Positions 6,609 through 32,201 of a stretch of 64,000 nucleotides of DNA are shown here, piece after piece. The position numbers and the translations under genes are program-made. Source of the stretch: an uncultured Bacteroidales bacterium (lineage in GTDB: Bacteria > Bacteroidota > Bacteroidia > Bacteroidales > UBA1402); NCBI GenBank assembly GCA_964502355.1, contig CAZCWK010000006.1, positions 2,321 to 66,320 of the forward strand. The letters are read 5' to 3'. Numbering within the stretch: the stretch's first letter is position 1; each line of letters opens with the position of its first letter. The notes under the pieces were generated by a model that was not told the DNA's origin, did not search any database, and saw only the letters and a program-made list of their open reading frames with translations.

Positions 6609-6720
6609 TTTGATTATTTGCAAATAATTTAAAGTCAAAAATATAAATAAACAAAATAAAAAAAGATATTCAAACATAATGTATTTTAATCCTATTCGTT
6701 AATGTTTACTTTTTTATATT

Positions 6721-6728
6721 TATATTTG
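6721..6728 (+). promoter_or_regulatory. candidate Bacteroidota -7 promoter box (TAnnTTTG)
   Basis: TATATTTG matches the TAnnTTTG consensus, about 100 nt upstream of the CapD-like gene. No clear -33 TTTG was seen. Confidence 0.25.
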
Positions 6729-6830
6729 TAGCTCTTTACGTCCCAAATTTTTTGATCTCCATGGATAAGCAAGACAGATTATTGTTTTTTTTAATTTGGT
6801 CGGGCTGGTTTTTAATTTAAAATATTTCTT

Positions 6831-14885: not shown

Positions 14886-16766
14886 TTATCCAAATAACTT
14901 ATTTATAAGGTCTTGTCTGTTCATTTTTCTTAGTTTTTTGATAATAATATCACGGTAATTTTTGTCATACCAGAAGAAATAATCTTTTTGCCCGGTTTTT
15001 TCCTGTTTGCTCTTTGCTGAGAATACGGGTTTAAGGGTATAAGGATCAAGGCCTGTATAAAACATTTCTGTAGCCAGGGTCATAGGTGTAGGCGTAAAAT
15101 CCTGTACTTGTTCTAGTCTGAAGTTAAGTCTGCGTGTTTCAACAGCCAGCTCAGCCATATCTTCTTCAGTACATCCGGGATGTGATGATATGAAATAGGG
15201 TATAAGTTGTTGTCTTCCGGTTTCAGCATGTTTTAATCTGCGATCTTCAAACTCATTAAACTTTTCTGTGAATTTTTTGAACTGATTAAAATCTGGTTTC
15301 CTCATAAGTCTGAGAACATTCTGGCTGGTATGTTCAGGAGCAACTTTTAATCTTCCGGATACGTGATTCTTCACAACTTCTTCCAGATATTCATAAGAAT
15401 AGTTCTTGTCATTTTCTTTAGCGAATGATTTTTCGTTTTTATTGTCAGATATTTTTTCTCCTACAATCAGATCATAACGTATTCCGCTTCCTATGAAGGA
15501 TTTTTTTATGCTGGGAACCGCATCGGCTGCTTTATATAAGTCTATTAATGGTTTGTGATTTGTATTAAGATTCCTGCATATTTTTGGATAAATACATGAA
15601 GGTCTTTTACAATTTCTGCATAAGCCCAAATCAAATCCCTGCATTTGATACATATTAGCTGACGGTCCACCCAAATCACTAAGATATCCTTTGAAATCCT
15701 CCATCTCCGATAGTTTCTTTATTTCATCAATAATGGATTCTTTACTTCTGCTTGTAATAAATTTGCCCTGATGAGCAGAAATAGTACAAAATGAACAGCC
15801 TCCGAAACATCCTCTGTGAATATTAACTGAGAATTTTATCATTTCATAAGCCGGGATGGTTTTGCCTTTATATTTTGGATGTGGAAGTCTGGTAAATGGT
15901 AAAGAATGCACTTTGTCAAGCTCTTCACCTTCCATTGGAGGGAAAGTGCCATTCACAACAATTTCAAGGTTTCCACATGATTGTATTATTCTGCTTGATT
16001 GATATTTGTTGGATTCCTCTTCAATTATTTTGAAGTTTTCAGCCTGATAAATCTTGTTTTTCAGGCATTCTTCATGTGAATGTAAATAAACCCATTCGTT
16101 TTGTCTTATTATTCCTTTCTGGTTATTGCCTTCATTTACACCAATATAAGCTGTCTGAGGGATGTCTTTCATTGATGAAATAGTTTCACCTTCCATAAAT
16201 CTTTTGCATAACTCAGCAAGCGGTTTTTCCCCCATACCATATACCAGCATATCTGCCTTGCTGTCAATGAGAATACCGGGCATTAATTTATCTGACCAGT
16301 AATCGTAATGAGTCAACCTTCTGAGAGATGCTTCTATACCTCCGATGATTACAGGAGTATCAGGAAATAATTTTTTTAATATCCCTGAATAAGTTATTGT
16401 GGCGTAATCCGGTCTCGAACCTGCTTTTCCACCGGCAGTGTATGCGTCATCCGAACGTAATCTTTTATTTGCGGTATAATGATTCACCATAGAATCCATA
16501 CAGCCGGCAGTAATGGCAAAGAAGTATTTTGGTTTGCCTAATTTGGTGAAATCTCTGTAATCACCTCTCCAGTCAGGTTGTGGAACCAATGCGACTTTTA
16601 GCCCAAATGATTCCATCAATCTTCCGATAACAGCAGCACCAAACGAAGGGTGATCAACATATGCATCACCTGAAAAGATTATAACATCAACTTCATTCCA
16701 ACCCCTGATTTCCAGTTCTTTTTTTGTGGTTGGCAACCAATCTGTTAGTCTGTAATTTTCTGCCAT
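14886..16766 (-). CDS. ygiQ: YgiQ family (UPF0313) radical SAM protein
   Basis: 626 aa. Radical SAM triad in CFGGCSFC. N-terminal MAENYRLTDWLPTT...VDVIIFSGDAYVDHPSFG is typical of YgiQ. Confidence 0.85.
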   Translation of the reverse strand: MAENYRLTDWLPTTKKELEIRGWNEVDVIIFSGDAYVDHPSFGAAVIGRLMESFGLKVALVPQPDWRGDYRDFTKLGKPKYFFAITAGCMDSMVNHYTANKRLRSDDAYTAGGKAGSRPDYATITYSGILKKLFPDTPVIIGGIEASLRRLTHYDYWSDKLMPGILIDSKADMLVYGMGEKPLAELCKRFMEGETISSMKDIPQTAYIGVNEGNNQKGIIRQNEWVYLHSHEECLKNKIYQAENFKIIEEESNKYQSSRIIQSCGNLEIVVNGTFPPMEGEELDKVHSLPFTRLPHPKYKGKTIPAYEMIKFSVNIHRGCFGGCSFCTISAHQGKFITSRSKESIIDEIKKLSEMEDFKGYLSDLGGPSANMYQMQGFDLGLCRNCKRPSCIYPKICRNLNTNHKPLIDLYKAADAVPSIKKSFIGSGIRYDLIVGEKISDNKNEKSFAKENDKNYSYEYLEEVVKNHVSGRLKVAPEHTSQNVLRLMRKPDFNQFKKFTEKFNEFEDRRLKHAETGRQQLIPYFISSHPGCTEEDMAELAVETRRLNFRLEQVQDFTPTPMTLATEMFYTGLDPYTLKPVFSAKSKQEKTGQKDYFFWYDKNYRDIIIKKLRKMNRQDLINKLFG

Positions 16767-22252: not shown

Positions 22253-22939
22253 TTATTCAACAGTCATCATATAACCCGTTCCACGCATAGTCTTAATTTG
22301 AACCCGTGGATCGGGAGCAAGATATTTTCTTAACGTATAAATAAATGCATCAAGCCTTTGTTGTGTGTAAAACTTAATGCCTCCCCAGATAAGTTCGGCT
22401 ATTTCTTCTTTAGAAACCAGCTGGTTCATTTTTTTACACAAAAGTTCTAATAAATATGCTTCACGCATAGATAAATGAACATCACCATTAGATGAATGAA
22501 GTACCTGTAATTTAGCATCAAAGCCCATATTTCCCAAATGATATATGTTTTCTGATTTATCCTCAGATTTTATACCTGTCCTTTTTATAAGTCCCTGTAG
22601 ATAAGCATGAAGCTCATCAGGTAAAAAAGGTTTTTTAATATAATTATCAATGCCGATTTTATATGCTTCCAGTATTATTTTACTGGAAGTTACGCATGTT
22701 TCAAGTATGATTGGAATATCGGCATCCTTTTCTCTGATCTTTCTTGCAAAATCAAGACCACTCATTATAGGCATTTCAACATCAGATACAATTACGTCGG
22801 GTTGGAACTCTTCATACGCTCTCAATCCTTCAACAGGATTAACAGACCACTGAACATCATATTCGCCTATAAGTTCCATTCCTTCTTTTATAATGAAGCC
22901 CAAAACTTCATCATCTTCAACCAACAATAACTTGATCAT
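22253..22939 (-). CDS. OmpR/PhoB-family response regulator
   Basis: 228 aa. Receiver domain (DVIVSDVEMPIMSG, KKPF) plus a winged-helix C-terminus (MRGTGYMM). Lies 4 nt downstream of the kinase gene. Confidence 0.85.
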   Translation of the reverse strand: MIKLLLVEDDEVLGFIIKEGMELIGEYDVQWSVNPVEGLRAYEEFQPDVIVSDVEMPIMSGLDFARKIREKDADIPIILETCVTSSKIILEAYKIGIDNYIKKPFLPDELHAYLQGLIKRTGIKSEDKSENIYHLGNMGFDAKLQVLHSSNGDVHLSMREAYLLELLCKKMNQLVSKEEIAELIWGGIKFYTQQRLDAFIYTLRKYLAPDPRVQIKTMRGTGYMMTVE

Positions 22940-22943
22940 ATAA

Positions 22944-24245
22944 TCAATTTTTATATAAATCTATTATAAATTCACTGCCAACGCCTTCTGTACTATCTAC
23001 CATAATAGAGCCCTTATGGGCTTTAATAACTTTCTGGACGTAATTTAATCCTATACCAAAACCATCAATACCTTTTATATCTACTTTATTACCTCTTTCA
23101 AAATTGTCAAATATGTGTTTGATTTCTTTTTCTGAAATTCCAAACCCATTATCCTTGATATGAATCTTGAGTTTATCTGATTGACATTCACATATAATCT
23201 GAATTTTTATAGTTGATTCTGAGTATTTTATCGCATTATCTATGAGATTACTCAAAACATTTTCCATTAATGTCGGATCAAAATTCCAGACTATATTTTC
23301 CTGATTGTAACTGGTAGTAATTTCAAGATTTTTTTGTCTGTAATTATTCAATCTATAACTCTCTGCAATTTTCTCAATATATGGTTGTAATGTTACTACT
23401 TCATAGTCCGGAATAATTGCTGAATGTTCTGCTTTTGCAACCAATAGTATCCTTTCAACAGTTTTCAATAATTTTGAACTTTGATCTTTACATATTTGAT
23501 AATGTTTTTGTCTTGACTCCAGGTTACCTTCAAGCTTTCCGGAAGTCAGCATGGATGAAGACATGTATATACCACTTATAGGAGTTTTTAATTCATGAGT
23601 AAGAGCATGTGTGTATTCTTTAAGAAATGTTACAAACTTACTTTCTCTAAGCATTCCCTGTAACTGAATGATTAAAATTACACCAATCAATACAGCCAGA
23701 AACAAAGATATTATCAATATTAACTGTGCTTCCCGCAATACTGAACGAATAGGTGAAATGAGAGTTACTTTTAAATATTGATCTTCTGTAATCTTATTAT
23801 ATAAGGTGTATTTAGAATAAGTGCTTTTAATTCTGGTAGAATCATCAACCATCTTTACTGTATAATTCAACTTTTCATTCAAACTATTATCAAGGTTCTG
23901 GCTAATTAATGTATCCAGGCGTGAAACTGAACAGGGGAGACCCAGCATTTTTGATAGTTCTTGCAGGCTAGTGTTTATGTCGATTGATTTACTGACTTGA
24001 TTATCTGTAAGAACCACGTCATCATTATCTAAAATATTTTTTTCTTGAACATTTAAATTAATAGATTTTTTTTCAAGTCTTTCATATAACTCAGATTCAA
24101 CAGCTTTATCAATGCTTTCTTTGCATTTTACCAAAAGATTATGCTCCATAAGGTCAAAAGAATTTTTAAACCAGATATATTGCAGTACCAGTAACAGCAG
24201 TATGCCAACGATTGATACGATTCTGATAGATTTAGTCTTGAACAT
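22944..24245 (-). CDS. sensor histidine kinase (two TM helices flanking a periplasmic domain, HisKA + HATPase_c)
   Basis: H-box THELKTPISG, N-box LIDNAIKYS, G-boxes DNGFGIS and GFGIGLNYV. The track start 24272 is TTG; the first ATG is at 24245. Confidence 0.85.
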   Translation of the reverse strand: MFKTKSIRIVSIVGILLLLVLQYIWFKNSFDLMEHNLLVKCKESIDKAVESELYERLEKKSINLNVQEKNILDNDDVVLTDNQVSKSIDINTSLQELSKMLGLPCSVSRLDTLISQNLDNSLNEKLNYTVKMVDDSTRIKSTYSKYTLYNKITEDQYLKVTLISPIRSVLREAQLILIISLFLAVLIGVILIIQLQGMLRESKFVTFLKEYTHALTHELKTPISGIYMSSSMLTSGKLEGNLESRQKHYQICKDQSSKLLKTVERILLVAKAEHSAIIPDYEVVTLQPYIEKIAESYRLNNYRQKNLEITTSYNQENIVWNFDPTLMENVLSNLIDNAIKYSESTIKIQIICECQSDKLKIHIKDNGFGISEKEIKHIFDNFERGNKVDIKGIDGFGIGLNYVQKVIKAHKGSIMVDSTEGVGSEFIIDLYKN

Positions 24246-24297
24246 TATAATTTCATATTGAGGTGTATGCAAATATAAATGATTATTTAAAAACTTG

Positions 24298-24417: not shown

Positions 24418-24564
24418 ATGAAAACAATTTTTAATTCAACCAAAAGCAACAAGAAAAATTTTGAAGTTATCTCAAGTGAAGAAATGAAACAGGTTCAAGG
24501 TGGTGTTCGCGTGATTGCTATCAGAGATGGTGAAGGAAATATAAGAGTAGTTATCATACCTTAA
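24418..24564 (+). CDS. double-glycine-leader precursor peptide (48 aa), bacteriocin/RiPP/peptide-signal candidate
   Basis: Below the ORF-track cutoff. My translation: MKTIFNSTKSNKKNFEVISSEEMKQVQGG|VRVIAIRDGEGNIRVVIIP. The leader fits the GG-leader consensus (hydrophobic at -4, -7, -12, -15; E at -8; S at -11). A C39-peptidase ABC exporter lies downstream. Confidence 0.8.
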   Translation: MKTIFNSTKSNKKNFEVISSEEMKQVQGGVRVIAIRDGEGNIRVVIIP

Positions 24565-24766: not shown

Positions 24767-25762
24767 ATGTATCGGTATTTTAACCTTTATTCGTTTTGTA
24801 TTCCTGTTAAGGGGATAAAAAGGGCGGTCGTCTGCGATTTGCAGCGTAATATTATTCAACCTATACCTCTGTTGCTCTTTGAATATCTCGAGAAACTTAA
24901 AACAGTTGATGAACCTTTGGAAATGTTAGATACTTATACTAACATTGAGAGGAATACAATCAATGAGTATATCAACTTCTTATATTATAATCAGTTCGGT
25001 TTTTTTACAACAAATAAGCCGATTGCTCCTGACATCCCGACAATTGAATATTCTGATGATAGTCAAATTACAAATGCAATTGTGGACTTTAACAGAAATT
25101 CGGAACATTCTTTAGAAAATATTCTTGGTCAGTTATCTGAATTGGGATGTAAGGCTATTGAAATAAGATATTTTTATCCAATACCTTTTACTCATTTTTT
25201 AGATTCATTAATCGTTGCAAATAATTGCCAGGTTGAAAAAATCGAATTTTTACTCCAGAAAAATGAGGAAATTAACTGGAACAAAATTCTTCAGTTAAAT
25301 ATTCAATTTCCAAAACTAAAAAAAGTTACTATAAGTAATTCTGCAGACAATATTATCTACAAACATGAGGACCTTGTAGTAATATATACTACTGAGATAA
25401 TCAGGAATGAGACAAAATGCGGTGTTACAGGTGAGCTTTATTGTATAGCTGATAACAGATTATTCTGGGAATCTCAGAATTTTAATAATTGTCTTTACAA
25501 AAAAATATCAATTGACAAATCCGGATTAATAAAGAATTGTCCTTCCATGCAGGAAAGCTTCGGAAATATACAATTCACTAAGCTATCTGATGTAATTTCA
25601 GATGAATCTTTTAAAAAATTCTGGACCATAACTAAGGATTCGATTGAGATTTGCTCAGAATGCGAACTAAGATATGTTTGTCAGGATTGCAGAGCTTATA
25701 CAATAAATATGAACAATCCTTTTTCCAAACCTCTGAAATGCAGATATAATCCTAAAGAATAG
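24767..25762 (+). CDS. SPASM-domain protein lacking the radical-SAM Cys triad (pseudo-radical-SAM / SPASM-only peptide-maturase-like)
   Basis: 331 aa. The C-terminus has a full 7-Cys SPASM pattern: CLYKKISIDKSGLIKNC (C-x10-G-x4-C), CSECELRYVCQDC (C-x2-C-x5-C-x2-C), and a final C in KCRYN. No CxxxCxxC occurs anywhere in the protein. Confidence 0.75.
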   Translation: MYRYFNLYSFCIPVKGIKRAVVCDLQRNIIQPIPLLLFEYLEKLKTVDEPLEMLDTYTNIERNTINEYINFLYYNQFGFFTTNKPIAPDIPTIEYSDDSQITNAIVDFNRNSEHSLENILGQLSELGCKAIEIRYFYPIPFTHFLDSLIVANNCQVEKIEFLLQKNEEINWNKILQLNIQFPKLKKVTISNSADNIIYKHEDLVVIYTTEIIRNETKCGVTGELYCIADNRLFWESQNFNNCLYKKISIDKSGLIKNCPSMQESFGNIQFTKLSDVISDESFKKFWTITKDSIEICSECELRYVCQDCRAYTINMNNPFSKPLKCRYNPKE

Positions 25763-25841: not shown

Positions 25842-28055
25842 ATGAAAAGCTTTCATTTTATTTCACAGTTGGATGCCATGGATTGCGGACCAACCTGCCT
25901 ATTGATGATATCAAAATTTTATGGGAAATCTTTTGATTTACAGGATTTAAGACAAAGAGCATCAATAAATAAACTTGGAACTAATCTGCTTGGCCTCAGT
26001 GAAGCTGCTGATTCATTAGGTTTTGAAGCAACCGGAGTTAAAGTTTCAGAAGATCAATTGATTGAGGATGTCCCACTGCCATGTATTCTTCACTGGAAAC
26101 AAAATCATTTTGTTGTATGTTACGACATTAAAAGGAAAAGGAATGGATCAGTGATTTTTTTAATTGCTGATCCTGCTACCGGATTAGTAAAGTATGATAA
26201 AAATGAAATCAGAAATAACTGGATAAGTTCCGGAAATTCAAATGAAAATGGAAATAAGGGAGTTGCATTGATTCTTCAACCTACAAATGTCTTTTTTGAT
26301 ATTGCAGAAGAAAAACCAAATGGAAAAAACAAGATAATCCCTTTTATTAATTATTTAAAACCGTATAAGAAGCATATTTTACAGATCATTGTAGGTATGG
26401 TAGCTATCAGCATTTTACAGTTGATTTTACCGTTTCTTACTCAGGTTTTGGTCGATATTGGTATAAAAGATGGCAATTTAAATTTCATAAAAATCATCCT
26501 CATTACCCAGCTTTTAATTTTTATTGCGAGATTATCTGTGGAATTTATCAGAGGATGGTTATTGTTACATATTAATACAAGGATAAGCATATCTCTTATT
26601 TCAGATTTTCTGATTAAAATCATGAAAATGCCTCTGAAATTTTTTGATACTAAAACAATAGGGGATATATTACAAAGGATAAGCGATCACAAAAGGATAG
26701 AATCTTTTTTAACAGGCAATTCGGTTACCTTACTATTTTCACTCATTAATTTTTTTGTATTTTCCTTAGTGCTTGGTTATTATAAATTTAGCCTGCTGGC
26801 TTTATTTTTATTAGGAAATACAATTTACGTTGTGTATGTTCTGTTTTTTATGAAATACCGCAAAAACCTCGACAATAAAAAATTTGAACTTTCTGCTGAA
26901 GAACAAGGTAATTTGATACAGATGGTTTCCGGTATGCAGGATATAAAACTAGGTAACTGTGAAAATCAAAAAAGATGGAAGTGGGAGCAAATTCAGGTAA
27001 GATTATTTAATATTAATGTCAAAAATCTTGCATTAGGACAAATTCAACAAATCGGTTCAGTCTTTTTTAGTCAGCTTACCAACATTCTGATTACGTTTAT
27101 TGCTGCTAAATCTGTGGTAGATGGCGAAATAACTTTGGGTATGTTGATGTCAGTAAGTTTTATACTGGGTCAGTTAAGTGCTCCTATTGATCAGTTTCTT
27201 GGATTTTTTCAGACATTCCAGGATGCAAAACTTAGTCTGGAACGGTTGAATGAGATTCACGGCAAAAATGATGAGGAACAGGATTCTATGAAAAAGCTTG
27301 AAGAGATATCCGGTAAAAGGAACATTATAATTTCGAATCTTAGTTTTGGATATGAACATGCTGAAAGAGATTTTATTTTAAGGGATCTGAATCTTGTGAT
27401 TGAAGAAAATAAAGTTACTGCGATCGTTGGTTCCAGCGGAAGTGGTAAAACTACATTGATAAAATTATTACTCGGTTTTTACGAACCTCAAAAAGGTAGT
27501 ATATGTATTGGTGATACTAATCTGAATAATATTAATCCTCACTACTGGAGGAATTGTACAGGCTCGGTATTGCAGGATGGTTATATTTTTTCTGAAACAA
27601 TAGCCGAAAATATTGCATTAGGTGATACTGAGATTAATAACGAAAAACTGAATAAAGCTGTAAATATTTCAAATATTAAAGATTTTATTTACTCTTTACC
27701 TCTAAAGTTCAATACAAAAATCGGTACTGATGGGCATGGTTTAAGTCAGGGACAGAAGCAAAGAATTTTAATAGCCAGGTCTGTTTACAAAAATCCGGAT
27801 TTTTTGTTTTTTGATGAAGCAACAAATGCACTTGATGCTTCAAATGAAAAGGAAATAATGGAAAATCTTGATTCTTTCTACAATGGAAAAACTGTAATCA
27901 TTGTAGCACACAGGCTAAGTACAGTCAGAAATGCAGATAAAATTGTTTTTATTGAAAATGGTCAGATTATTGAAGAGGGTAATCATGAGGAACTGACTTC
28001 GCTTCGGGGAAAATATTACAATCTTGTAAAGAATCAGTTGGAGCTTGGTAATTAA
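25842..28055 (+). CDS. peptidase-containing ABC transporter (PCAT; C39 peptidase + ABC TMD + NBD), bacteriocin/peptide exporter
   Basis: 737 aa. C39 catalytic Cys in QLDAMDCGPTC and His in HWKQNHFVV. Six-TM region. Walker A GSSGSGKTT, signature LSQGQKQR, Walker B FLFFDEATNALD, H-loop VAHRLS. Confidence 0.9.
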   Translation: MKSFHFISQLDAMDCGPTCLLMISKFYGKSFDLQDLRQRASINKLGTNLLGLSEAADSLGFEATGVKVSEDQLIEDVPLPCILHWKQNHFVVCYDIKRKRNGSVIFLIADPATGLVKYDKNEIRNNWISSGNSNENGNKGVALILQPTNVFFDIAEEKPNGKNKIIPFINYLKPYKKHILQIIVGMVAISILQLILPFLTQVLVDIGIKDGNLNFIKIILITQLLIFIARLSVEFIRGWLLLHINTRISISLISDFLIKIMKMPLKFFDTKTIGDILQRISDHKRIESFLTGNSVTLLFSLINFFVFSLVLGYYKFSLLALFLLGNTIYVVYVLFFMKYRKNLDNKKFELSAEEQGNLIQMVSGMQDIKLGNCENQKRWKWEQIQVRLFNINVKNLALGQIQQIGSVFFSQLTNILITFIAAKSVVDGEITLGMLMSVSFILGQLSAPIDQFLGFFQTFQDAKLSLERLNEIHGKNDEEQDSMKKLEEISGKRNIIISNLSFGYEHAERDFILRDLNLVIEENKVTAIVGSSGSGKTTLIKLLLGFYEPQKGSICIGDTNLNNINPHYWRNCTGSVLQDGYIFSETIAENIALGDTEINNEKLNKAVNISNIKDFIYSLPLKFNTKIGTDGHGLSQGQKQRILIARSVYKNPDFLFFDEATNALDASNEKEIMENLDSFYNGKTVIIVAHRLSTVRNADKIVFIENGQIIEEGNHEELTSLRGKYYNLVKNQLELGN

Positions 28056-28069
28056 TAAAAAATGTTCGA

Positions 28070-28585
28070 ATGAATCAAAATGATATAGAAAAAAGGTCAG
28101 GGGAAGTACAAAAACTGATGAATCAAATACCCGGTAAAATACTCATATGGGGAAATACGATAATTCTTTTTATAGTAATTAGTTTAATAATAATTGCCTG
28201 TTTTTTTAATTATTCAGAAGTAGTAAAATCTGATATCATAATTAATACTACCAGAACCGGTCATAATACATATGTGAATAAAGGGTTATTATTATTGAAT
28301 TTTGAAGGATCAGATAAAATCAGAAAAGGTTATCCTGTAGAAGTCCGTATTGATAACTATCTTGGACATAAACAAGGTCATATTAAAGGTGTTATAACAG
28401 CAATATGTACTAATAATTTAAATAGTGAGTTTGGAGAAGCTCATATAAATTTCTCCCGGACTGTGGTAGCTGATAACCATAAATATTTACCGGACTCTAT
28501 TGTGTTTCGTGGCAATGCGAAAATAATAGTTGGAAAAACCAGGTTTTTAACAAAAATAAAGCTGGCTTTGAAAAAGAAATCATAA
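28070..28585 (+). CDS. HlyD-family adaptor-like protein, unusually short (171 aa; no coiled-coil hairpin)
   Basis: The N-terminus (RSGEVQKLMNQIPGKILIWGNTIILFIVISLIIIACFF) and C-terminus (GNAKIIVGKTRFLTKIKLALKK) resemble the ends of about 400-aa Bacteroidota bacteriocin HlyD proteins (from memory). The central helical region is absent. Confidence 0.55.
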   Translation: MNQNDIEKRSGEVQKLMNQIPGKILIWGNTIILFIVISLIIIACFFNYSEVVKSDIIINTTRTGHNTYVNKGLLLLNFEGSDKIRKGYPVEVRIDNYLGHKQGHIKGVITAICTNNLNSEFGEAHINFSRTVVADNHKYLPDSIVFRGNAKIIVGKTRFLTKIKLALKKKS

Positions 28586-28593
28586 TAAAGGTA

Positions 28594-30012
28594 TTAAGCT
28601 ATAGGTATCTTAATAAGAAATTCAGTTCCAACATGTTCTTTGCTTGTAACCAGAATATCGCCTTTATGAGCCTTCACAACTTTTTTTACAAAACTTAAAC
28701 CAATACCGTATCCCATAATACTGCTTCTTTCAACTTTGCTACCCCGGTTGAAATTTTTAAAAATTTCATCCAAATCCTGAGCTGAAATTCCCATACCATT
28801 ATCGGATATTTTAATATTGAGGTTATTATTATCCTGCCGGCATTCAATATCAATATTTAGTGATTCATATGAATATTTGATAGAATTATCTATCATGTTG
28901 TAAAAAACTATCTCAAATTTGTCTTTGTCTATACAGGCTTGCAGATTTTCCGGATTACATATAAAACTAAACTTCACTTCTTTGTTTTGCACTGAGACAG
29001 ACTCTTTGTAATAACAGATTATTTCATTAACAAATTCGTTAATTTTTACAAATTTCTTTGTTAAAACAAGTTCACCTCGTTCTTCTTTTGCCAAAAGAAG
29101 TAGTCTGTGAATACTCCGGATTTGTTTTTCGCATTGTTCTTTGAATAGTTTATAATACTTGCTGCGTAACTCTTCGCTTTTATCAAAATTACCCATTTTC
29201 AACATATCAGAAACGTACATTATATTGTTTAACGGAGTCTGCATATCGTGAGTTACTGCGCTGGTATATTCCTTTAAAAATTGAATTTTAAGATGCTCTT
29301 TATTTAATGATCTTATTTGAAGAATGATAATCAGTATAACAAACATTACAATAAAAAGAGAAGTAAAGAATAAGCGTCGTATTTCTTTGTAGTGTATTAC
29401 AGATTTAAGATCAAGATTCATTTCAATTACCTGTACACTGTTTAACCTGATAAGAATATGGTTACCTTGTATGCTATCATATACCAGATTTGTATTAGAG
29501 CTAACTTCAGAAGTTGTTTTTTTGGTATTTCTACCCTTAGTAGAATCACTGATTAAACCTGAAATCTGAAAGTTTTTTAATTGAACAGAATCATTTTTGA
29601 TTGAAATATTATATTCCGGTAAAAAGCCAATTTTATTTGTAATAATACTTTTATATATAGAATCAATTTTAGATATATCAGGTTTAATACCCATAAGATA
29701 TGATGATTCATATAAAAATATTATCATATCTCCGGTTTTAGACGCCATACCACTAGCAATAACTTCTCCGTCAGTAACAAATGTATCTTTGACTAAACTT
29801 ATTTTACTGTCAGCTAAAACATCTGTTCTTTCAATCAATTCAATATCTGCCGCTTCCCTAAGGCTCGTTTTGCATTTCTCCATCATATCTTTTGATGTGG
29901 ATTCAAATGCTTGTAAAAACCAGTTATACTGCAGTATTAATAGTAATAAAACGCACAATATGGGTAATACATGCATTGATATGTAAACCAGTTTGTTCTT
30001 ATTTATTTTCAT
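28594..30012 (-). CDS. orphan sensor histidine kinase, paralog of 22944-24245
   Basis: 472 aa with the same architecture as the other kinase. TM1 LLLLILQYNWF compares with LLLLVLQYIWF. H-box VTHDMQTPLNN; NMIDNSIKYS; SDNGMGIS; GYGIGLSF. No adjacent response regulator. Confidence 0.85.
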   Translation of the reverse strand: MKINKNKLVYISMHVLPILCVLLLLILQYNWFLQAFESTSKDMMEKCKTSLREAADIELIERTDVLADSKISLVKDTFVTDGEVIASGMASKTGDMIIFLYESSYLMGIKPDISKIDSIYKSIITNKIGFLPEYNISIKNDSVQLKNFQISGLISDSTKGRNTKKTTSEVSSNTNLVYDSIQGNHILIRLNSVQVIEMNLDLKSVIHYKEIRRLFFTSLFIVMFVILIIILQIRSLNKEHLKIQFLKEYTSAVTHDMQTPLNNIMYVSDMLKMGNFDKSEELRSKYYKLFKEQCEKQIRSIHRLLLLAKEERGELVLTKKFVKINEFVNEIICYYKESVSVQNKEVKFSFICNPENLQACIDKDKFEIVFYNMIDNSIKYSYESLNIDIECRQDNNNLNIKISDNGMGISAQDLDEIFKNFNRGSKVERSSIMGYGIGLSFVKKVVKAHKGDILVTSKEHVGTEFLIKIPIA

Positions 30013-30111: not shown

Positions 30112-30582
30112 TTATTTCATCTTTTTTGTAAGTTTCTGAATATCTTCCATAGTCATGTTTCCATTCATTTGTATGATGACAAATTCGTCAGGTTCATCAA
30201 CCAACATTACAAGTTCAGAAATCAGAGTTTCAGATTTTTTCTTGACATAAAAATTTACATTGGATCCATCATCTTTGATTTTCATAAGTATTTCATATGC
30301 CGGATTGTTATGAAAGTGGGAAGTTTCCGTACGCATCATTTTTGCTATTCCGGGATTTTCAGAAGTCAGTATTAAAATACCTGATAGTTTTCCTGCAAAA
30401 TCTCCTATGTCCATTCCATTTTGGATTTTCATACCAGGCATCATTTGAAGCATTGATTTTGAAATAAATACAGAAGTAACTCCTTCCATCTCAGAAAACT
30501 TATCAAACAATTTATTTTGGGCAAAGCAATTGCCTGTAATCAGAACCATCAGTAAAGCAATTATTATATTCTTTGTTTTCAT
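30112..30582 (-). CDS. DUF4252 domain-containing secreted protein
   Basis: 156 aa with a signal peptide. The pattern LFDKFSEMEGVTSVFISKSML...ILILTSE...FVIIQMNGNMTMEDIQKL is typical of DUF4252, as I recall that family. Confidence 0.7.
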   Translation of the reverse strand: MKTKNIIIALLMVLITGNCFAQNKLFDKFSEMEGVTSVFISKSMLQMMPGMKIQNGMDIGDFAGKLSGILILTSENPGIAKMMRTETSHFHNNPAYEILMKIKDDGSNVNFYVKKKSETLISELVMLVDEPDEFVIIQMNGNMTMEDIQKLTKKMK

Positions 30583-30592
30583 ATAGTTATTA

Positions 30593-31183
30593 TTATTTGT
30601 TATTAGTAATCTTTTTAATTTGTTTGTCTAATATCTTATTGGATTTTTCAATTTTATTTGTTGCATTCTCCATTTGTTCAAATCCTGTATTTAAGTTCTC
30701 AGCGACCAAAGCAAGAGCTTTTTGAGTTTCAACGTAAGCTTTAGCCGGATCATTAAAAGTATCAGCATAGTTTTGAGTATCATTTTTCTTAACTACGGCA
30801 AATGTTATTGCAAATATTATTAGGGCACATGCTGCGATTGTTGACATAATTGTCCATGGCGAATACAGAAATACATTTTTTCTTTTTGGAGGCTTTATAT
30901 CAGGATTTATTCTTTCTGATATTGCTTTTTCACTATAGCTGGAATTGTTATTTTCGGAATTTTCAGAAAGTTTATCAATCATAGAGTTTAAATCAAACTC
31001 CAGGGATTCAGGTACGTTTATCACTTCGTTTTCATAACAAGCTAAAAATATTTTCTTGTCATCCATCAGTTCATCTGGTACATTATCCTTACTGAAGAAT
31101 TCATACAATTCTTTTTCTTGTTCGTTTGTGGTATTCCCATCATAAAACTCTGAAATTAGCTTTTTTATATGTTGAGTTCTCAT
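30593..31183 (-). CDS. putative anti-sigma factor (single-pass membrane protein)
   Basis: 196 aa. Cytoplasmic N-terminus, one TM (WTIMSTIAACALIIFAITFAVV), immediately downstream of the ECF sigma gene. Assignment is by context only. Confidence 0.4.
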   Translation of the reverse strand: MRTQHIKKLISEFYDGNTTNEQEKELYEFFSKDNVPDELMDDKKIFLACYENEVINVPESLEFDLNSMIDKLSENSENNNSSYSEKAISERINPDIKPPKRKNVFLYSPWTIMSTIAACALIIFAITFAVVKKNDTQNYADTFNDPAKAYVETQKALALVAENLNTGFEQMENATNKIEKSNKILDKQIKKITNNK

Positions 31184-31187
31184 TGTT

Positions 31188-31745
31188 TTATAGTGTAATG
31201 TTTAGACAATATTCATTATTATTTTCTACTTTATAATTCAATTCTCTGTTATAGAATGAATTATAATTTTCTTTAATAAACTTTCTACTTCTTGACAGAA
31301 TAACTCTGATATTGACAGCGCTTAATCCTGTAATCGCTTCAATTTCTTCAAAACTGTAATCATCATAGTGTCTTAATTTAAATACAAGCTTACTTTGCTC
31401 AGGCATTTTTTCGACAATCTTGTTAATAATACTTAGTGACTCATTGGTTTCAAAATCAGTAATTATTGACGAACTGTCAGACTTTTCCACATTTTGCAAA
31501 TCAAGCGAGTTCATTTTGTTTCTTGATGATCTCAAAATATCCATGCAGAGATTTCTAACCATTACTATGCAAAAGGATTCAGGATTTCTGAGTAATTCAA
31601 GCTCATCTCTTTTTTCCCACAACTTAACGTAAGTTTCCTGAACTACATCCTCTGCATCTGATGAATCTTCAAGAAGGCGATAGGCCATTCTGTAAAGTTT
31701 CTTATGTAAAGGAATAAATACTCCTTTGAAAGTAGTTGCATCCAT
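31188..31745 (-). CDS. ECF-type RNA polymerase sigma-70 factor
   Basis: 185 aa. Region 2 (DAEDVVQETYVKLW) and region 4 HTH (SFEEIEAITGLSAVNIRVILSRSRKFIK). Confidence 0.85.
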   Translation of the reverse strand: MDATTFKGVFIPLHKKLYRMAYRLLEDSSDAEDVVQETYVKLWEKRDELELLRNPESFCIVMVRNLCMDILRSSRNKMNSLDLQNVEKSDSSSIITDFETNESLSIINKIVEKMPEQSKLVFKLRHYDDYSFEEIEAITGLSAVNIRVILSRSRKFIKENYNSFYNRELNYKVENNNEYCLNITL

Positions 31746-31748
31746 TTA

Positions 31749-32201
31749 TCAATTGTTACATGCAAATTTTTGAACATCAGTTAAAGAAAAGCTGCCTTTA
31801 ATTCTGATATAAGCTGAATCATCACCGGTTACTAAAATGACGATTTCGTTAAAATGATCATTATAGTTTTTGGCCATAATCTTTACAAACTCGTCATCTT
31901 CTTTCACCTGAATAAGAGTTTCGTACAATTCATCATCAACATATCTGACTCTGTCACCATATTCTTCTTTTACATGCCTGTCACATTCACTCAAATCCAG
32001 AACCTGTAATGATTTTATTTTCAGGCCACTAAATTCTTTTTGTGATATGAATGGTCTTATCACTGACATGACAAAACGATTAAGATTTACTTTTTCAACA
32101 TTCCGGGCATATGAAAAATCCTTAAAAATATCACTCACAGATTCTGCCTGAATATTGAGGACGCTGATAAAAATTGTTGCTATAAATAAAATACGTTTCA
32201 T
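31749..32201 (-). CDS. DUF4252 domain-containing secreted protein
   Basis: 150 aa with a signal peptide. C-terminal VILVTGDDSAYIRIKGSFSLTDVQKF fits the DUF4252 pattern. First gene of the ECF operon. Confidence 0.65.
   Translation of the reverse strand: MKRILFIATIFISVLNIQAESVSDIFKDFSYARNVEKVNLNRFVMSVIRPFISQKEFSGLKIKSLQVLDLSECDRHVKEEYGDRVRYVDDELYETLIQVKEDDEFVKIMAKNYNDHFNEIVILVTGDDSAYIRIKGSFSLTDVQKFACNN

Follow-up and report, generated by a model that had tools for sequence, protein, structure and literature searches.

What is left for a peptide maturase to do once it has kept the iron-sulphur (Fe-S) SPASM domain of a radical S-adenosylmethionine (SAM) enzyme and lost the cysteines that hold the SAM-cleaving cluster? 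The question is raised by GwsS, a protein of 331 residues encoded by an open reading frame (ORF; 24767..25762, + strand, ATG start, stop included) in a 64,000-nucleotide stretch of DNA from an uncultured Bacteroidales bacterium (GenBank assembly GCA_964502355.1, contig CAZCWK010000006.1, positions 2,321 to 66,320 of the forward strand), hereafter the window, whose numbering is used throughout. A sequence-only reading of the window had singled the protein out and had left its role open between a redox partner, a peptide-binding scaffold and new chemistry. Profile searches, predicted structures and the comparison of related loci incline us, by a modest lean, towards a SAM-independent Fe-S maturase of radical SAM-SPASM (rSAM-SPASM) descent, which would bind the leader of its precursor peptide and act within an operon lacking the ATP-grasp ligase of the canonical system.

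The cysteines and family of GwsS

The gene and its supporting evidence are:

24767..25762, + strand: GwsS-family SPASM-only protein, 331 residues (TIGR04193 match, AlphaFold2 model, fold match to CteB, ratio of non-synonymous to synonymous substitution rates (dN/dS) of 0.08 against the related locus L010)

The cysteines of GwsS lie at residues 11, 23, 128, 154, 218, 226, 242, 258, 296, 299, 305, 308 and 325. Those near the C-terminus fall into C242-x10-G253-x4-C258, then C296-x2-C299-x5-C305-x2-C308, with C325 as the last, which is exactly the spacing first read from the sequence. Enough ligands for two auxiliary 4Fe-4S clusters had been counted there, and rightly, but the set was incomplete: C218 makes it eight, and C218, C242, C258, C296, C299, C305, C308 and C325 were all present in 117/117 aligned homologues. 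Eight is the number that full ligation of two 4Fe-4S clusters requires. As had also been noted, the CX3CX2C motif of radical SAM enzymes is missing; a six-frame scan found it neither in the protein nor in any frame of the surrounding gene cassette, and the only CX3CX2C within a real ORF of the window was that of a YgiQ-type radical SAM gene about 8 kb away (14886-16766, − strand).

Among the profiles that the sequence-only reading had named as comparisons, the NCBIfam model TIGR04193, named 'grasp-with-spasm system SPASM domain peptide maturase' (GwsS), matched over the full length (258.7 bits, cutoff 175; residues 4-329 on profile positions 1-327 of 342), and the Pfam SPASM model PF13186 matched marginally, at 20.5 bits just below its gathering score of 21.5. 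The remaining two gave nothing: the radical SAM core PF04055 had no match to GwsS at E ≤ 1 in the Pfam search, and TIGR04150 none at E ≤ 0.01 in the NCBIfam search. The NCBIfam SPASM model TIGR04085 aligned to residues 245-321 (29.1 bits, cutoff 27, E 1e-6), and other NCBIfam radical SAM/SPASM families aligned solely to residues 241-329, leaving the N-terminal 240 residues uncovered.

A search for homologues gave 2173 clusters at 90% identity, from which the best 120 were examined and 117 were aligned for cysteine conservation. Pfam content in these best 120 was either none or SPASM only, with PF04055 in none of them; CX3CX2C upstream of the SPASM region occurred in 0/120, and CX2CX5CX2-3C in 119/120. 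The family extends over at least 578 species-level genomes of Bacteroidota, Acidobacteriota (Thermoanaerobaculia), Gemmatimonadota, Myxococcota and others. At an overall identity of roughly 35%, some 45 positions of GwsS reach 95% conservation or more across the phyla, including D24, R27, N103, D107, R134, E235, K246, D250, K290, D291, R302, D307, R309, K321 and K324. Between the window and L010, a 95%-identical relative, dN/dS is 0.08 (dN 0.026), which indicates strong purifying selection on GwsS. The identical protein, with the same neighbours, also stands on an independent metagenome contig.

GwsS had been presented as an open oddity. By its profile coverage it is instead an ordinary full-length member of a known, curated and biochemically uncharacterised family, and, across the homologues compared, a retained SPASM domain with the SAM-cluster ligands gone is the defining state of the whole GwsS family and not of one gene. 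The central fact, loss of the SAM cluster, is already implicit in the family annotation.

Predicted architecture and descent

An AlphaFold2 model built from 89 homologues (mean predicted local distance difference test score (pLDDT) 89.9, predicted TM-score (pTM) 0.83) divides GwsS into three parts:

24767..25009, + strand: RRE domain (PqqD-like winged helix, leader-binding), residues 1-81 (AlphaFold2 secondary structure, Foldseek)
25073..25387, + strand: relic of a radical SAM partial TIM barrel, residues 103-207 (AlphaFold2 secondary structure, Foldseek; no PF04055 match)
25418..25759, + strand: SPASM domain, residues 218-331, with eight invariant cysteines (TIGR04085, PF13186, 117/117 homologues)

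The N-terminal 210 residues or so, which had been considered together, are in the model not a single degenerate radical SAM domain, as residues 1-81 form an RRE domain and only about 105 residues belong to the barrel. The first of these parts is predicted to have four strands and three helices in a winged-helix RRE fold, and the first ~82 residues superpose on the stand-alone RRE proteins TbiB1 (5V1U/5V1V) and lasso B1 (6JX3) with Foldseek probability 1.00, target TM-scores (TMt) of 0.58-0.63 and root-mean-square deviations of 2.7-3.7 Å, whereas the PqqD Pfam profile does not match this domain of GwsS. Its conserved residues are C11, V14, G16, C23, D24, R27 and P34. By likeness to stand-alone RRE proteins such as PqqD and TbiB1, residues 1-81 would be expected to bind a leader peptide; unlike them, the RRE of GwsS is fused to a relic barrel and a SPASM domain and carries two conserved cysteines (C11 and C23). 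The second part, residues 103-207, is modelled as four beta/alpha units followed by a hairpin, with N103, D107, C128 and R134 invariant.

With the whole model as query, the first Foldseek hit in the PDB was the sactisynthase CteB (5WHY/5WGG; E 3.5e-7 to 5e-7, probability 1.00, ~420 columns), at TM-scores of only 0.40-0.45, followed by TigE (8VPO) and SkfB, which together with SuiB are further relatives; viperin (6B4C) matched with probability 0.96. Residues 1-217 were also modelled alone to exclude a fold match driven by the SPASM domain (pLDDT 91.6, pTM 0.56), and CteB was still best (E 1.3e-4, 214 columns), with TIM-barrel enzymes matching the beta/alpha part. Sequence searches against solved structures, with the family profile or with the SPASM part alone, gave no radical SAM/SPASM match. 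CteB and GwsS share collinear RRE, beta/alpha and SPASM parts and a RiPP-type operon (for ribosomally synthesised and post-translationally modified peptides) with a leader-bearing precursor, and differ in that their identity is ~12-15%, that CteB has a full (beta/alpha)6 core against the ~105 residues of GwsS, which resemble TIM-barrel fragments, and that GwsS has neither CX3CX2C nor a PF04055 match. Because the predicted fold is collinear with that of CteB, and remains so with the SPASM domain removed, GwsS is, on the strength of the models, a derivative of an RRE-radical SAM-SPASM maturase of the sactisynthase type. Whether a partial barrel persists had been posed as a question for precisely this comparison with CteB; what is predicted of it is four beta/alpha units and a hairpin.

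The place of the lost cluster can be approached in the same model. In radical SAM enzymes the CX3CX2C loop follows strand beta1. The stretch that the sequence-only reading had assigned to this loop, with F, S and S in place of the cysteines, comprises residues 101-119 (ITNAIVDFNRNSEHSLENI), and within it the segment ITNAIVDFNRNSEHS is modelled as strand beta1 (103-108) with the loop ahead of helix alpha1 (116-125). F108, S112 and S115 have the 3/2 spacing of CX3CX2C. The position in the model therefore supports the proposed correspondence with the ancestral SAM-cluster loop, as does the spacing, but a residue-level alignment does not underlie it. Barrel enzymes have their active site on the face formed by the C-terminal ends of the strands, and the model puts D107 and R134 on this face, where beta1 and beta2 end. 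The invariant polar residues as a whole (D24 and R27 in the RRE, N103, D107 and R134 at the barrel top, and many in the SPASM domain) suggest a functional site and not a bare scaffold.

A cassette without the ATP-grasp ligase

Eighty species-representative loci, together with further loci, were searched by tblastn with ATP-grasp, exporter, kinase and regulator queries. The ATP-grasp ligase GwsG (TIGR04192/PF21068-like) had no match between 15001 and 35000 of the window. It was found in 0/15 loci whose GwsS is at least 48% identical (the window, L001-L006 and L010-L017), over flanks that reach up to 7-10 kb on each side, against 73/74 loci whose GwsS is at most 45% identical, where it mostly ends ~200-300 nt upstream; the sole exception among the latter, L032, lies on a contig too short to tell. 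The 15 graspless loci are monophyletic in a neighbour-joining tree, their members all being uncultured Bacteroidales or Bacteroidota, and the closest to the window is the metagenome-assembled contig CAZCPI010000003.1, at 95% identity. Judged from these searches, the clade has lost the GwsG ligase of the canonical grasp-with-spasm system. The sequence-only reading, whose observation is confirmed and whose interpretation is partly supported, had missed this absence. Canonical loci run from the precursor or precursors through the ATP-grasp ligase and a protein of 77-81 amino acids (aa) to the SPASM protein, often with a C39-ABC exporter nearby. This order is not strictly fixed, since in two loci the ligase is not directly upstream: L045 has it downstream of the SPASM gene, and L059 carries it on the other strand.

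The genes of the graspless cassette in the window, other than gwsS, are:

22253..22939, − strand: OmpR-type response regulator (PF00072 and PF00486)
22944..24272, − strand: sensor histidine kinase 1, divergent from the precursor operon (HisKA and HATPase_c)
24418..24564, + strand: precursor peptide, 48 aa (weak matches to double-glycine (GG) leader profiles, orthologues in relatives)
24418-24504, + strand: double-glycine leader of the precursor, aa 1-29
24505-24561, + strand: core of the precursor, VRVIAIRDGEGNIRVVIIP, 19 residues
24585..24761, + strand: conserved 58-aa partner, directly upstream of gwsS (conservation in graspless loci, selection)
25842..28055, + strand: C39-peptidase/ABC exporter, 737 aa (PF03412 at 1e-29, PF00664, PF00005; NCBIfam bacteriocin ABC matches)
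28070..28585, + strand: short HlyD-like adaptor, 171 aa (alignment to the L005 and L002 adaptors; weak TIGR01843 match)
28594..30012, − strand: sensor histidine kinase 2, paralogue of kinase 1, convergent with the operon end (HisKA and HATPase_c)

Where flank allows, graspless loci share this layout: response regulator and divergent kinase, precursor, a 57-67 aa protein, GwsS, C39-ABC exporter, HlyD-like adaptor and convergent second kinase. They agree with canonical loci in the three-part architecture of GwsS, its invariant cysteine and polar residues, the small upstream protein, the GG-leader precursor and the C39-ABC exporter. They differ in lacking GwsG, in having short, Cys-free hairpins in place of the Thr/Ser/Asp-rich graspetide cores of canonical precursors, in the size of the small partner (57-67 aa against 77-81 aa) and in the response regulator and two sensor kinases on their flanks; canonical loci have no kinases or regulator at those positions.

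The leader of the precursor ends in FEVISSEEMKQVQGG (...EEMKQVQGG) and is weakly recognised by PF10439 (E 4e-4) and TIGR01847 (16.1 bits, cutoff 15.7), whereas the models TIGR04139 and PF14406, for precursors whose residues can form esters or amides, gave no match at E ≤ 10 (NCBIfam) or E ≤ 1 (Pfam). Its core, VRVIAIRDGEGNIRVVIIP, contains no Cys, Ser, Thr or Lys. Orthologous precursors in nine relatives likewise have a Cys-free core of strand, D-x-x-G turn and strand, with few nucleophiles; in L013 the expected precursor region (~6660-6790) is masked by a run of N/X and unreadable. The ORF at 24418-24564 is the sole one with a GG leader found in the window. Over its last 34 codons the precursor has 72% nucleotide identity to that of L010 (6651-6794) and a dN of 0.23, against ~93% identity for the flanking genes. 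By analogy with peptide pheromones and bacteriocins, and from small numbers, this divergence suggests allele replacement or diversifying change.

The 58-aa partner is kept in all graspless loci, including those without a gene call, differs from its L010 counterpart by 12 synonymous and 0 non-synonymous changes, and is under purifying selection. It has no Pfam or NCBIfam match, and its conservation can be written as the motif AE.LF..PIS..YG...ISR..ND..YKVV.L. At the same position canonical loci encode proteins of 77-81 aa that have a K/N-x-ISR motif in common with it, and from these short motifs the two appear to be homologous. Because a small protein and a SPASM protein occur together in both kinds of locus, they are the conserved module common to graspless and canonical systems. 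Cysteines precede ISR in the small protein of canonical loci, as C-x5-C-x2-C in L008 (2475-2720) and C-x2-C in L009 (6744-6980); the small proteins of L007 and of the graspless clade have no such motifs before ISR. The interval from the precursor to gwsS was considered as the site of an ATP-grasp remnant, and this was rejected: it spans only 200 nt, which code for the conserved 58-aa protein.

The exporter lies directly downstream of gwsS in every graspless locus and is predicted to cleave the leader at the GG site and export the product. The adaptor next to it consists of a transmembrane anchor and the C-terminal part of the barrel, the coiled-coil hairpin being missing; in the 435-aa adaptor of L005 its counterparts are residues 5-53 and 278-429, the HlyD-like protein of L003 aligns in the same way (434-435 aa for the two), and a 181-aa protein of L002 aligns with it over its full length. 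Because L002 has the same short form, this is a feature of the clade and not an artefact of truncation.

Kinase 1 stands upstream of every graspless locus with enough flank and together with the response regulator in the clade, and is not found at that position in loci bearing the ATP-grasp gene; its true start may be an internal ATG giving 433 aa, as called in L001. Kinase 2 is present in L002, L003, L005, L012 and L014. The two kinases have similar N-terminal sensor regions with two hydrophobic segments around ~150 aa, and against these two there is only one response regulator (22253-22939) flanking the cassette. In its GG-leader precursor, C39-ABC exporter, adaptor, adjacent kinase and regulator, and in a precursor that diverges much faster than its neighbours, the cassette is like ComC/ComAB/ComDE-type pheromone and class II bacteriocin loci. 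Those loci have no Fe-S maturase, and the host here is an uncultured Bacteroidales bacterium, whose kinases are putative sensors of the peptide.

Two comparative studies have touched on the canonical system. Makarova et al. 2022 (PMC8939145) list TIGR04193 as 'SPASM domain peptide maturase' in their cluster 20/ATP-grasp branch 5, and elsewhere treat it as a SPASM radical SAM enzyme for which thioether bonds are predicted; their 'LPL family' position, assigned to proposed PqqD-like helpers, is that of a small protein upstream of the SPASM gene, and the 58-aa partner corresponds to it in location. Carter et al. 2026 (PMC13097080) mention a SPASM protein only as something that accompanies group 14 graspetides. 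A 2026 preprint uses gwsG and gwsS as gene names. A literature search returned no paper on GwsS missing its SAM cluster and none on graspless gwsS cassettes, which would have gone unseen in both comparative studies because these started from ATP-grasp genes. The graspless cassette is apparently an undescribed variant of the grasp-with-spasm system.

Candidate roles for GwsS

From the gene content of the cassette, GwsS is the only candidate modifier of the small secreted hairpin peptide. The SAM-independent maturase that we favour would work as follows. The RRE, probably with the 58-aa partner, would bind the leader of the precursor and present the 19-residue hairpin core to a pocket bounded on one side by the relic barrel at its top (N103, D107, R134) and on the other by the SPASM clusters. 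There the Fe-S protein would act on the peptide without SAM-derived radical chemistry, by electron transfer/oxidoreduction or by cluster-assisted binding. The exporter would then cut after Gly-Gly and secrete the product, which the flanking two-component system may sense. The auxiliary clusters of rSAM-SPASM enzymes have been proposed both to bind substrate and to shuttle electrons (PMC10114670).

Several points weigh against this proposal. Fe-S binding by GwsS is deduced from the conservation of its cysteines, no member of the family has been biochemically characterised, and both the operon and the sensing by kinases are drawn from gene order. The cores of the clade are Cys-free and have few reactive side chains, so no specific reaction can be proposed, and the literature search gave no precedent for a SPASM domain that carries out chemistry on peptides in the absence of a radical SAM partner. 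Finally, a SAM-independent maturase leaves the conserved C11, C23 and C128 unexplained.

Within this picture, a catalytic role for GwsS is favoured over a pure scaffold by only a moderate margin. As a non-catalytic scaffold or chaperone, GwsS would be a pseudoenzyme whose RRE hands the precursor to the real catalyst, with purely structural Fe-S clusters; the recipient would be the ATP-grasp ligase in canonical loci and the C39-ABC exporter alone here. The loss of the ancestral catalytic cluster in 120/120 members examined fits such a role, as do the retained RRE and the poorly functionalised, Cys-free cores, which offer no obvious chemistry. There is support from the canonical side as well: branch-5 precursors are without the usual leader motif recognised by ATP-grasp enzymes, for which accessory recognition has been suggested (Makarova et al., PMC8939145), and partner-dependent graspetide synthesis has precedent (PMC13097080). 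The graspless clade is harder to accommodate, as GwsS and its small partner have outlasted the ATP-grasp gene there and are held by strong purifying selection. Invariance across phyla takes in the eight cluster cysteines together with many charged residues beyond the RRE, which exceeds what clamping a leader would demand. In addition, C39-ABC exporters normally handle GG-leader peptides without a chaperone. We therefore regard a pure scaffold as a serious but doubtful explanation.

The N-terminal cysteines raise a second alternative. They had been described as isolated, which they are, but they are not randomly placed: C11 and C128 are invariant and C23 occurs in 114/117 homologues, two homologues having Tyr there and a further two loci, L037 and L068, Val. 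In Dph2-like enzymes the three cluster cysteines are drawn from separate segments of the protein. GwsS could by the same principle be a cryptic radical SAM enzyme, in which C11, C23 and C128 ligate a non-canonical 4Fe-4S cluster that binds and cleaves SAM; three cysteines are the ligand number of a site-differentiated cluster, and their conservation holds over Bacteroidota, Acidobacteriota, Gemmatimonadota and Myxococcota. The replacements show, however, that C23 is not universal. C11 and C23 are placed on neighbouring strands of the RRE sheet and C128 just before strand beta2, at its N-terminal end and thus at the opposite strand end from the ancestral cluster site, and the model of residues 1-217, with its pTM of 0.56, contains no confident packing of RRE against barrel that would join them. 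The barrel is moreover down to four beta/alpha units, the sequence after beta2 reads AIEIRYFYP with no SAM-binding motif of the G-G-E type, and neither PF04055 nor any NCBIfam radical SAM model matches in the N-terminal 240 residues. A cryptic SAM cluster is accordingly improbable. The earlier statement that GwsS cannot generate a 5'-deoxyadenosyl radical is likely to be right in view of the absent canonical motif, although the three conserved cysteines keep it from being proven.

A third possibility is that GwsS is an inactive paralogue working with a radical SAM enzyme encoded elsewhere. This has been proposed for pairs of TIGR04150, the pseudo-rSAM protein of the GG-Bacteroidales system (a Bacteroidota SPASM-type maturase homologue that has lost its SAM-cluster cysteines and adjoins a GG-leader precursor), and TIGR04148, the genuine radical SAM enzyme with which it is described as being paired. 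The likeness to GwsS is one of concept, in the lost SAM-cluster cysteines; the TIGR04150 model does not match GwsS, and the TIGR04148 partner is absent here. The candidate in the window is:

14886-16766, − strand: YgiQ-type radical SAM protein, 626 aa (PF08497, PF04055, DUF3362; CFGGCSFC motif)

This gene lies 8 kb upstream of the cassette and is syntenic with it in L003, yet it belongs to a housekeeping family and is on the other strand, with MutS2-like and glycosidase genes in between, and for reasons of distance, family and strand we judged it unrelated. Among annotated GwsS loci, canonical and graspless, a radical SAM gene was called in 0/9, and a partner acting in trans is very improbable. 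As for a frameshift or misassembly hiding a radical SAM motif, or a decaying pseudogene, which the sequence-only reading had raised against itself, the chance is negligible and we consider it ruled out: GwsS has the length of its family and aligns end to end with the family hidden Markov model, the identical protein stands on an independent contig, CX3CX2C is found in no frame of the cassette, dN/dS is 0.08 and the upstream frame codes for a separate conserved protein.

A SAM-independent maturase can also be framed more boldly. The graspless cassette might constitute a new class of ribosomal peptide, with GwsS, helped by the 58-aa partner, as sole maturase, a SAM-independent change made to a Cys-free beta-hairpin, and recognition of the exported product by both kinases as a strain-specific signal among uncultured Bacteroidales. 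In this full form the proposal is unlikely, but if true it would provide the first chemistry for a SPASM domain without a radical SAM partner.

Irrespective of mechanism, the family is large (2173 clusters at 90% identity from the search, with relatives in no fewer than 578 species-level genomes), SPASM-only and biochemically untouched. From their sequences, its members would be unable to form thioethers as radical SAM enzymes by the canonical route, and product predictions for group 14/branch 5 graspetides should therefore be reconsidered. With its precursor, 58-aa partner, SPASM protein and exporter, the graspless clade is a minimal system for testing, free of confounding by an ATP-grasp ligase, and could show what auxiliary Fe-S clusters do alone, a matter that concerns all rSAM-SPASM maturases (PMC10114670). 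Its kinase-flanked layout and fast-diverging precursor are a hint that Bacteroidales may signal by peptides, through systems still poorly known in this order. Beyond kinase 2, the − strand of the window carries small ORFs of 156, 196, 185 and 150 aa at 30112-32201, which are collinear with the DUF4252, unknown, sigma-70 and DUF4252 genes of L002 and probably unrelated to the cassette.

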